Positions 1 through 1,979 of a DNA stretch of 1,979 bases are shown here, piece by piece; position 1 is the stretch's first letter; each line of letters opens with the position of its first letter. The notes below the pieces were generated by a model, which saw only the letters and a program-made list of their open reading frames with translations, was not told the DNA's origin and did not search any database. Position numbers and translations under genes: made by a program. The stretch lies in NCBI RefSeq assembly GCF_003334815.1, contig NZ_QOWO01000090.1. The stretch is one strand, 5' to 3'. This stretch comes from Escherichia coli. Lineage in GTDB: Bacteria > Pseudomonadota > Gammaproteobacteria > Enterobacterales > Enterobacteriaceae.

Positions 1-810
1 AACCAGATGGACCCGGTGTACACGCCGGCGCGAAAAATCCACCTGTACCACTGCGACCATCGCGGCCTGCCGCTGGCGCTTGTCAGCACGGAAGGGGCAA
101 CAGAATGGTGCGCAGAATACGATGAATGGGGCAACCTGCTGAATGAAGAGAACCCGCATCAGCTGCAGCAGCTTATCCGCCTGCCGGGGCAGCAGTATGA
201 TGAGGAGTCCGGCCTGTATTACAACCGCCACCGCTATTATGACCCGCTGCAGGGGAGGTATATCACTCAGGATCCGATTGGGCTGAAGGGGGGATGGAAT
301 TTTTATCAGTATCCGCTGAATCCGGTTCAGTATATAGATTCAATGGGACTGGCATCAAAATATGGACACTTAAATAATGGCGGATATGGAGCGAGACCCA
401 ACAAACCGCCTACGCCCGATCCAAGTAAATTGCCGGACATAGCGAAACAATTAAGACTGCCATATCCTATTGACCAGGCCAGTAGTGCGCCTAATGTTTT
501 CAAAACATTCTTCAGAGCATTAAGCCCTTACGACTACACACTGTATTGCAGGAAGTGGGTAAAACCAAATCTGACTTGTACGCCACAGGATGATTCCCAG
601 TATCCAGGGATGGATACAAAGACAGCAAGTGATTACCTGCCACAGACAAATTGGCCAACAACTCAATTACCACCAGGATATACTTGTGCAGAACCCTATT
701 TATTCCCAGACATTAATAAACCCGATGGGCCAGCAACAGCAGGGATAGATGATTTGGGTGAAATTTTAGCTAAGATGAAACAGAGAACATCGAGAGGAAT
801 AAGAAAATGA
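1..810 (+). CDS. Rhs-family polymorphic toxin, 3' portion (5'-partial; gene begins upstream of the window). Core end is 1-351, variable C-terminal tip is 352-807, stop TGA is 808-810.
   Basis: Frame 1 is open from base 1; the ATG at 7 is an internal Met, not the true start. The translation ends in a typical Rhs core terminus (YDEWGNLL...[45 protein letters not shown]) with the DPxGL-(17 aa)-DxxGL boundary motif, followed by an unrelated 152-aa extension. GC content by eye falls from high-50s percent to about 40 percent at position 352. Confidence 0.9.
352..807 (+). other. Variable Rhs C-terminal tip (putative toxin domain, about 152 aa, unassigned family)
   Basis: Begins immediately after DSMGL (ends at nt 351). 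AT-rich relative to the core. Pro/Tyr/Thr-rich, with 3 Cys (residues 181, 191 and 227 of the track ORF). No nuclease, deaminase or ADP-ribosyltransferase motif recognisable by eye. Confidence 0.6.
794..798 (+). promoter_or_regulatory. Ribosome-binding site for the downstream immunity ORF
   Basis: GAGGA lies 8 nt upstream of the ATG at 807, inside the 3' end of the toxin CDS. Confidence 0.45.
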
Positions 811-1376
811 AAAGAGTTTTGTTCTTTTTGCTGATGATATTTGTTAGTTTTGGTGTTATAGCTGATTGCGAAATACAAGCTAAAGATCATGATTGTTTTA
901 CTATTTTCGCTAAGGGTACTATTTTTTCCGCGTTTCCTGTCTTAAATAATAAAGCCATGTGGAGATGGTATCAGAATGAGGACATCGGTGAGTATTATTG
1001 GCAAACAGAACTGGGTACATGTAAAAATAATAAATTCACACCAAGCGGGGCGAGACTCTTAATTCGCGTCGGGTCACTACGCCTTAATGAAAATCATGCC
1101 ATCAAAGGAACGTTGCAGGAGTTGATAAATACAGCAGAAAAAACGGCGTTTCTCGGCGATCGGTTTAGAAGTTATATAAGAGCGGGTATCTATCAAAAAA
1201 AGAGCAGTGATCCAGTTCAGTTGTTGGCAGTCCTTGATAATTCAATCATGGTAAAATATTTTAAAGATGAGAAACCAACTTATGCTCGAATGACAGCACA
1301 TCTCCCGAACAAAAATGAGTCTTACGAATGTTTAATAAAGATACAGCATGAACTAATTCGTAGTGAAGAGAAATAA
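807..1376 (+). CDS. Putative Rhs immunity protein (189 aa) with predicted N-terminal Sec signal peptide; function inferred from position only
   Basis: The ATG at 807-809 overlaps the toxin TGA at 808-810 (ATGA). A GAGGA Shine-Dalgarno sits at 794-798, 8 nt upstream. The N-terminus [22 protein letters not shown] has a basic n-region, a hydrophobic core and a V-I-A signal peptidase I-like site. AT-rich like the toxin tip. Its position directly 3' of the Rhs tip is the canonical immunity gene location. Confidence 0.75.
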
Positions 1377-1446
1377 AATCTCTTCCTGAGAAAACAAATT
1401 AATCATTGTGAAAAATTATATAACTCATGGAATAGGTGTTTATTTT

Positions 1447-1488
1447 GCGTTCCATTTGCAGGGAAAGATCACGTAACGCTACTTTTTT
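1447..1488 (+). terminator. Weak candidate Rho-independent terminator after the immunity gene
   Basis: Imperfect inverted repeat GCGTTCC (1447-1453) / GTAACGC (1473-1479) followed by TTTTTT (1483-1488). The stem is short with one mismatch and the loop is about 19 nt, so support is poor. Confidence 0.2.
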
Positions 1489-1590
1489 GTACTAAATAAT
1501 TCGAATTTTAAGTTCAACAATTGAGATACTACTTATTGTCTAAAGCTGTTTTTCATAGCTTATACATGATCAAATACTCCTTACATAAAT

Positions 1591-1596
1591 AAGGTG
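1591..1596 (+). promoter_or_regulatory. Ribosome-binding site of the H-repeat transposase frame
   Basis: AAGGTG lies 5 nt upstream of the ATG at 1602. Confidence 0.4.
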
Positions 1597-1601
1597 AACA
1601 A

Positions 1602-1979
1602 ATGGAACTTAAAAAATTGATGGAACATATTTCTATTATTCCCGATTACAGATAAGCCTGGAAAGTAGAGCATAAATTGTCAGGCATCCTACTATTGACT
1701 ATTTTTGCCGTTATTTCTGGTGCAGAAAGTTGGGAAGATATAGAGGATTTCGGGGAAACACATCTCGATTTCTTGAAGCAATATGGTGATTTTGAAAATG
1801 GTATTCCTGTTCACGATACTATTGCCAGAGTTGTATCCTGTATCAGTCCTGCAAAATTTCACGAGTGCTTTATTAACTGGATGCGTGATTGCCATTCATC
1901 AAATGATAAAGACGTCATTGCAATTGATGGAAAAACGCTCCGGCACTCTTATGACAAGAGTCGCCGCAGGGGAGCGATT
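1602..1979 (+). pseudogene. H-repeat-associated protein / ISAs1-family transposase, N-terminal part (3'-partial, runs off window), interrupted by an in-frame TAA at 1653-1655
   Basis: Frame 3 translation: [125 protein letters not shown]. From memory this matches the N-terminus of enterobacterial H-rpt (ISAs1-family) transposases, which are classically found next to Rhs elements. The stop sits where I recall homologs having Gln (CAA). Confidence 0.8.
1602..1979 (+). mobile_element. H-rpt / ISAs1-family insertion element, left portion. The true left boundary probably lies somewhere in 1377-1601 but cannot be placed.
   Basis: Transposase reading frame as above. No terminal inverted repeat can be defined because the right end is outside the window. 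Confidence 0.6.

Follow-up and report, generated by a model that had tools for sequence, protein, structure and literature searches.

The distal part of the Escherichia coli RhsC element: a probable orphan Rhs tip with a candidate exported immunity partner beside a dead H-rpt

Organisation of the locus

Here we analysed a stretch of DNA of 1,979 nucleotides from Escherichia coli (RefSeq assembly GCF_003334815.1, contig NZ_QOWO01000090.1), which we call the window and whose sequence places it in the distal part of the RhsC element, a locus that lies between ybfA and ybgA in E. coli. Search of 5,426 complete E. coli genomes with the whole window (megablast) found positions 1-1979 to be 100% identical in many chromosomes, for example that of O26:H11 strain 11368, and at least 80% of the window to be covered in 3,033 of the 5,426 genomes. 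Because the whole window has such 100% matches in E. coli chromosomes, chance is of no concern for the observed layout. An earlier reading, made from the letters of the window without database searches (the sequence-only reading), had suggested correspondence to a known enterobacterial Rhs locus, with a core end, a tip, a secreted open reading frame (ORF) of 189 amino acids (aa) and a defective H-rpt. The matches to the RhsC element bear out this suggestion, and the four parts all lie where that reading placed them.

The order of genes in O26:H11 11368 is kdpFABC, ybfA, rhsC (full length, 1,397 aa), ybfB, an rhs fragment, ybfC, an ISAs1 pseudogene, ybgA and phrB. The same order is found in K-12 MG1655, where rhsC, ybfB, ybfO (pseudogene), ybfC, ybfQ, ybfL (pseudogene) and ybfD lie between ybfA and ybgA (locus tags b0703 for ybfO', b0704 for ybfC, b4514 for ybfQ, b0705 for ybfL' and b0706 for ybfD). 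The window is 99.3% identical to the K-12 ybfO'-ybfC-ybfQ region, being identical across 1-1638, the whole tip and ybfC included, with every one of the 13 mismatches inside 1639-1820. The RhsC element of K-12 shares with the window the locus, the gene order and a TAA at codon 18 of ybfL, and differs from it in having an extra H-rpt left-end fragment of 380 bp (ybfQ) before ybfL and a further copy (ybfD). The locus is already known and has been annotated since early work on K-12, and its architecture is consistent with models already published for orphan tips and tip displacement. We consider it very probable that this distal part of RhsC is an orphan rhs-CT/immunity module downstream of a full-length rhsC-ybfB, followed by a dead H-rpt/ISEc1.

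Three reading frames occupy the window: one open at 1-810, an overlapping ORF of 189 codons at 807-1376, and one that runs from 1602 to the end with one interruption. The features that concern the module are the following.

1-351, plus strand: 3' end of the rhs core, its last 117 codons (NCBIfam RHS_core, TIGR03696, Pfam RHS)
352-810, plus strand: Rhs C-terminal tip (C-terminus of K-12 YbfO), 152 aa and TGA, a putative toxin, low in G+C, whose homologues are Rhs C-termini
807-1376, plus strand: ybfC, 189 aa, predicted Sec-exported periplasmic cognate immunity protein (RefSeq 'protein YbfC', WP_000832338.1)
807-863, plus strand: predicted YbfC signal peptide, cleavage before D20, read directly from the sequence
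1377-1458, no strand: AT-rich spacer between ybfC and the H-rpt, G+C 0.28, identical in K-12

The junction between core and tip is sharply defined. Residues 1-117 match positions 1146-1261 of the 1,261 of NCBIfam RHS_core (NF041261; E 2.8e-70), TIGR03696 (Rhs_assc_core) is matched over its full length (1-76 of 76; E 4.5e-24) and Pfam RHS is matched by the translated core (E 7.7e-15), all three matches sharing one endpoint, residue L117. At the nucleotide level window 1-348 is 95.7% identical to the core of the main rhsC of O26 and window 1-324 is 94.4% identical to the core of K-12 rhsB; the likeness to other rhs cores stops near 324-348, and G+C content falls from 0.57 in the core (1-324) to 0.43 in the tip, 0.37 in ybfC and 0.28 in the spacer. 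A boundary of the PxxxxDPxGL type is present at the core end, with S replacing P: the motif at 337-351 is IDSMGL, the canonical form being DPxGL. This serine variant is repeated across members of the tip family (IDSLGL, TDSMGL, YDSIGL), so that the last few codons of the core appear to travel with the tip.

Orphan and fused forms of the tip

In O26 11368 the tip follows an rhs fragment with 1,044 bp of core (348 codons, corresponding to rhs gene nucleotides 2695-3738) that is 96.9% identical to the main rhsC and has no N-terminus. Its frame is open from just past the ybfB stop, and translation from the first in-frame ATG, which no Shine-Dalgarno sequence precedes, would yield the 477-aa 'YbfO'; RefSeq labels the fragment 'incomplete; missing N-terminus'. 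The orphan and the main rhsC diverge after YPLNP, where the orphan passes into the window tip; the tip of the main gene is another one, paired with a small partner of its own, YbfB. This orphan layout, with a fragment devoid of an N-terminus placed after a full-length rhs and its immunity gene, was seen in O26:H11 11368 and in K-12, and not in strain E2865.

E2865 has the window at 100% identity, yet its core is continuous with a full-length Rhs protein of 1,399 aa, whose RHS_core score is 2,641 bits against a cut-off of 2,000; this strain has neither the main tip nor ybfB. Compared with O26 11368, the flanks differ at a single position of the 3,610 bp upstream and are identical over the 6,900 bp downstream. 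The rhs gene of E2865 is identical to the O26 main copy from nucleotide 672 to the start of the repeat, and from gene nucleotide 2970 on it is orphan-like at all 30 of the sites that distinguish the core copies, which places the crossover within nucleotides 2695-2970, an interval of 275 bp in the repeat of 1,044 bp. E2865 is the deletion product, in a near-isogenic background, that recombination between shared cores gives when it fuses the orphan tip to the main gene. At nucleotides 411-671 of the same gene (locus L003, 4021-4281) ten clustered mismatches set it apart from the rhsC of 11368, to which it is otherwise identical; gene conversion by a different copy of rhs appears to have left this short patch.

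The claim of the sequence-only reading that the tip is an orphan stands for O26 11368, K-12 and 29 of the 30 exact whole-window matches listed, which are annotated as truncated fragments, and it fails for E2865, the full-length case among them, with the same 1979 bases. The search for an in-frame full-length Rhs N-terminus upstream, proposed by that reading as a check, gave none in 11368 and K-12 and found one in E2865. An intact rhs gene contiguous with the core, which the same reading held to be incompatible with an orphan, exists in some of the genomes with an identical window and in about one third of the genomes with the tip.

Examination of the complete genomes shows how common the two forms are. 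The pair of tip and ybfC (window 325-1376, coverage of at least 80%) is carried by 3,509 of the 5,426 genomes, about 65% of E. coli, K-12 included, nearly always in one copy per genome, and by 2,770 of these 3,509 at an identity of at least 99%. The orphan layout was scored by contiguous cover of a query that joins the main tip, ybfB, the orphan core, the orphan tip and ybfC in this order; 2,396 genomes show it, and in most tip-and-ybfC genomes outside this layout, O157:H7 included, the tip is the main one. Taking 3,509 minus 2,396 as the upper bound for the fused layout, together with a sample of annotations, the ratio of stored to armed forms is about 2:1 among complete E. coli genomes. A count of 1,799 fused genomes, obtained with core, tip and ybfC as the query, was rejected due to the joining of main and orphan pieces in some genomes of the orphan layout. 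In the case of EDL933, the fusion of rhsC to the tip was shown by a published polymerase chain reaction (PMC7216683), whose primer rhsCR is the reverse complement of window 393-412. In elppa9 (locus L013, 2299-7052) a tip and ybfC 96.4% identical to those of the window form the main tip of a full-length Rhs at nikR (RhsB), and therefore the same cassette sits at different rhs loci in different lineages. In genomes with armed alleles, the interval between ybfC and the H-rpt contains extra small genes annotated as 'NTF2 fold immunity protein' and 'DUF6258' (L012 7324-8380, L015 6796-7023 and, in elppa9, L013 7296-9433); they are absent from the lineage of the window and look like further orphan immunity genes.

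Orphan rhs-CT/rhsI modules (PMC3150448) and a model of C-terminal displacement for rhs tips (PMC2935791) have been described before. The displaced or 'dissociated' tips of these models (Jackson et al.; PMC3150448) share with the window a core fragment, a tip of low G+C and a small ORF after an intact rhs, and the same tip attached in some strains, detached in others and found also at another rhs locus; nothing essential differs, the locus of the window being one of the cases described. A close parallel for arming is the rhs locus of Salmonella Typhimurium (PMC3967940; Starsta et al. 2020, PMC7043789). There too a full-length rhs precedes a 5'-truncated rhs fragment that bears a second, different tip along with an immunity gene of its own, and the orphan, which has no signals for initiation or export, becomes armed when it recombines with the main gene. 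The orphan Rhs toxin of Salmonella is expressed and delivered after that recombination (Koskiniemi et al. 2014; PMC3967940), and the pair of E2865 and O26 11368 is a natural E. coli counterpart of this process. The two systems differ in that their tip and immunity families are unrelated, in that the immunity protein of the E. coli pair has a signal peptide, and in that the Salmonella locus adjoins pathogenicity island SPI-6's type VI secretion system (T6SS), whereas RhsC has no adjacent vgrG.

According to the mechanism we propose, the tip in the orphan position would be neither made nor delivered, and recombination of the RecA type between the core copies would fuse it to the delivery part of RhsC and arm it, as experiments have demonstrated in Salmonella. 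The orphan cassette would then mainly confer immunity against siblings carrying the armed allele. Within its first 500 aa the RhsC of O26 contains DUF6531 (E 4.5e-17) and RHS repeats, and delivery of the RhsC tip by a T6SS is assumed here by analogy with its family.

The tip and YbfC as a candidate toxin/immunity pair

An exhaustive profile search of 1.84 billion representative proteins for relatives of the tip returned 28; those that are informative are all Rhs C-termini, and none carries a named toxin domain. The distant relatives (27-42% identity) are without exception Rhs C-termini behind a motif of the DPxGL type. The tip has three conserved cysteines, at residues 66, 76 and 112. Across the wider family S58, P59, C66, W69, P107, C112, A130 and D134 are invariant, D61, Y62, C76, D94 and G109 nearly so, and no histidine is conserved in the alignment. 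The putative toxin core of the family comprises about 115 aa with the motifs SPYDY...YC.KW and YFPEL, and its immunity partner is predicted to be an exported beta-sandwich. Residue 82 of the tip (window 595-597), within DDSQYP, is serine in an allele common to the window, K-12 and E2865; the change from proline may signal relaxed constraint in a stored copy.

ybfC begins at an ATG that overlaps the TGA of the tip (ATGA), with a GAGG 9 nt upstream. Direct reading of the YbfC N-terminus gives MKR, 16 hydrophobic residues, V-I-A at positions -3 to -1 and then D, which together with extracytoplasmic cysteines is what a periplasmic immunity protein would have. Among homologues at 59-92% identity (counted as 20 or 21; those with a named source come from Escherichia, Salmonella, Citrobacter, Kluyvera and Pseudocitrobacter) four cysteines are invariant and the hydrophobic N-terminus is conserved, and more distant homologues start with signal-peptide-like segments ending in ALA, ASA or AFA. 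The possibility that YbfC is a lipoprotein acylated at Cys21 was rejected because the residue at -1 is D or N, because the cysteine is displaced from +1 in distant homologues and because the four invariant cysteines fit two disulfides. The structural model of YbfC is a beta-sandwich, with a predicted local distance difference test score (pLDDT) of 74. Comparison of this model with AFDB50 using Foldseek retrieved uncharacterised proteins of 178-209 aa (E 1e-5 to 1e-8, identity 9-28%) from Paracidovorax, Delftia, planctomycetes (Roseiconus, Stieleria) and Lentisphaera, and it may be that exported proteins with the modelled fold make up a wider family that is unannotated. Matches to mitogen-activated protein kinase (MAPK) at E of about 0.8 in the sequence searches with the tip and YbfC were discarded as noise.

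The association of the two genes is also seen outside E. coli. Close relatives of the tip occur in genera overlapping those of the YbfC relatives (Salmonella and Phytobacter are named), on shared contigs. At each of the three distant loci opened, the relative of the tip is a short orphan rhs fragment and a YbfC homologue follows it; these downstream ORFs encode 188-194 aa, are 24-34% identical to YbfC, overlap the tip by stop and start codons and have a signal-peptide-like N-terminus. A small ORF that directly follows the tip and co-varies with it, as in an orphan module, is therefore indicated both by the ATGA overlap in the window and by the three distant loci. One distant homologue (locus L006) has VgrG, DUF2169 and PAAR-like genes nearby. 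Another (L009) has an orphan tip homologue followed by two tandem YbfC-like genes (4735-5301 and 5404-5976), both with signal peptides; the second is not paired with a toxin gene and so may be an orphan immunity gene.

Taking these results together, we infer that the tip and YbfC form a cognate toxin/immunity pair in which the protector would be periplasmic and the toxin would act in the periplasm or from it. The pairing is kept down to about 25-40% identity and the partner always has a signal peptide, which suggests that the toxin acts in the periplasm. ybfC would be translated from its own ribosome-binding site, and its product would leave the cytoplasm by the Sec route and acquire disulfides as it folds in the periplasm, where it would bind and neutralise the tip, a toxin working from the periplasmic side of the envelope.

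Tse1/Tsi1 and Ssp6/Sip6 are examples of T6SS effectors whose immunity proteins are periplasmic. These pairs serve as an analogy only: they are alike in having an exported immunity partner, which implies a toxin in or from the periplasm, and unlike in that no similarity of sequence or fold to the tip or YbfC was found. On a tentative view, the YbfO-type tip and YbfC may represent an uncharacterised Rhs toxin/immunity family with a new fold, a new envelope-directed activity and a natural switching between stored and armed states.

Silence, expression or decay of the module

The description of the module as a silent reservoir in the sequence-only reading is upheld by E2865 as regards the reservoir; silence was not shown, ybfC having its own ribosome-binding site and being listed together with rhsC among the differentially expressed genes in a transcriptome study of non-O157 Shiga toxin-producing E. 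coli (PMC6033998). With a probability somewhat short of even, and in overlap with the explanation that we prefer, the orphan module may not be silent, ybfC being expressed as a stand-alone immunity gene against neighbours that carry the armed allele, or the tip being made weakly from an internal start, with the pair acting in the manner of a type II toxin-antitoxin system as reported in Salmonella. The GAGG in front of ybfC and the transcriptome listing speak for expression, as does the finding in Salmonella that both main and orphan Rhs tips have transcripts from internal promoters and non-ATG translation starts (PMC7043789). Coexistence of armed and orphan alleles in E. coli would give immunity a use, and the ratios of nonsynonymous to synonymous substitution rates (dN/dS) against the O157, ES5 and elppa9 alleles, based on small counts, are all below about 0.35 (0.10-0.18 for the tip and 0.14-0.35 for ybfC). 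The promoter signal in the window is, however, no higher than in shuffled sequences (8 sigma-70-like sites against 5.0 +/- 2.5), the site at 349-378 matching only 9 of 12 positions, and a toxin-antitoxin role for this pair is made less likely by the fact that a toxin requiring the periplasm would, while in the cytoplasm, leave its producer unharmed. Scanning the window for terminators gave nothing above the shuffled expectation, and a scan against Rfam gave no match at E up to 1.

It is improbable that the cassette is a decaying remnant, devoid of function, of tip displacement and insertion sequence (IS) activity. RefSeq and the K-12 annotation treat the rhs fragment and the H-rpt as pseudogenes, the orphan allele has P82S at a position conserved in all the other alleles and genera, the locus is present in K-12, and ybfC is marked as frameshifted in one inspected O157:H7 genome. 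Against this, tip and ybfC are intact ORFs and 100% identical between K-12 and O26, the prevalence of the pair and its dN/dS values of 0.10-0.35 are as given above, the pairing of tip and YbfC persists at low identity, and a near-isogenic armed derivative exists in E2865. Still less probable is that the source genome of the window carries the tip as the C-terminus of its main rhs, armed as in E2865, O157:H7 and ES5, given that E2865 alone is full length among the exact matches listed and that the common fused alleles (O157, ES5, elppa9) are 1.4-3.6% different from the window, with P for S at tip residue 82.

Several observations weigh against an orphan module with an envelope-acting toxin. The window ends short of the 5' end of the fragment and is identical in E2865, so that it cannot by itself fix the orphan or main state; the orphan state is likely for the source genome by virtue of its frequency among the exact matches listed and not of its sequence. 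In four of the five O157:H7 genomes sampled the allele is armed, with a match longer by 1 nt, and the RefSeq frameshift mark in ybfC would be unexpected if the toxin were active in that genome. The O157, ES5 and elppa9 alleles and all homologues from other genera have proline at tip residue 82. Searches of Pfam, NCBIfam and PDB sequences gave no match for the tip, with single sequence or profile, and nothing usable for YbfC. AlphaFold models the tip poorly (pLDDT 53), and comparison with the PDB by Foldseek returned nothing below E 5, so no fold was assigned. Literature search found no report of toxicity of the tip or protection by YbfC. As for delivery, the N-terminus of O26 RhsC matches PAAR_motif only partially (residues 2-20, E 0.24), and no vgrG or T6SS genes lie beside the RhsC locus, where the flanks are kdp/ybfA and ybgA/phr. 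The putative periplasmic action has as its basis the signal peptide of the partner and the conserved cysteines.

A stored toxin accompanied by an immunity gene that is expressed is the most parsimonious reading of the module, and it accords with armed and stored alleles existing side by side in E. coli.

The H-rpt remnant

Downstream of the spacer the window holds the left part of an H-rpt, with the following features.

1459-1470, plus strand: left terminal inverted repeat of H-rpt/ISEc1, CAGGGAAAGATC, where similarity to the copies linked to yhhI, ydcC and ybfL starts
1550-1578, plus strand: sigma-70 promoter TTTTCA-17-AATACT of the H-rpt transposase gene, the reported RpoD site located in the window
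1602-1979, plus strand: transposase gene of the H-rpt (ISAs1 family), 5' part; a pseudogene resembling YhhI and YdcC that runs off the end of the window

Many genomic ISEc1 matches across E. coli begin at 1459, and the right end of a K-12 H-rpt copy, AATCTTTCCCTG, is a near-perfect reverse complement of the left repeat. The promoter corresponds to a binding site of RpoD holoenzyme reported between ybfC and ybfQ in K-12 (PMC3946193). The transposase frame starts at the ATG at 1602 and is interrupted by an in-frame TAA at 1653-1655 (codon 18), where the intact YhhI and YdcC have CAA; past the TAA it is open to the end of the window, and its translation equals YhhI/YdcC residue for residue, barring the stop and a few substitutions. 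RefSeq labels it 'ISAs1 family transposase; internal stop; incomplete'. The yhhI and ydcC copies of K-12 share with it the left inverted repeat, the leader of 143 bp and the transposase N-terminus, at 90-92% nucleotide identity over 1459-1979, and differ in that the window copy has the nonsense codon and the copy of O26 11368 also lacks about a third of the gene, its C-terminal part. An intact IS would have terminal inverted repeats and a DDE transposase ORF of about 378 aa; in the window the left repeat is present, the ORF is broken by the TAA, and in matching genomes the ORF also lacks its C-terminal part, the right end lying outside the window.

The H-rpt of the window matches K-12 ybfL (98.5%, same TAA) and not ybfQ, and the window lineage has a single ybfL-like copy, internally deleted beyond the window. 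The mismatch cluster at window 1639-1820 (182 bp) was compared with K-12 locus L002 at 9483-9664 and 9863-10044; in K-12 the H-rpts are nested, the 380-bp left-end fragment ybfQ being cut exactly where the left inverted repeat of ybfL begins. An inverted repeat of 16 nt (1443-1458 and 1599-1614, 88% complementary, arms 140 nt apart) has one arm just outside the left end of the H-rpt and the other over the transposase ATG. If transcription read through from ybfC, the transposase start codon could be masked in this way; the outer arm is specific to the locus, and the repeat may be due to chance. The H-rpt is a defective member of its family by descent, a dead IS at the edge of the element with no evident part in toxin function.

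Significance

The identification of the locus is correct and ordinary, and it matters little for discovery. A window of 2 kb cannot tell an orphan from a main Rhs tip, which is a lesson for calls made from sequence only. O26:H11 11368 and E2865 constitute a natural near-isogenic pair showing the arming of an orphan Rhs tip, with the crossover mapped to 275 bp. The cassette of tip and ybfC is very common and without a known domain or structure, and its immunity protein is apparently exported, so it offers a cheap target that may prove to be a new envelope-acting toxin.

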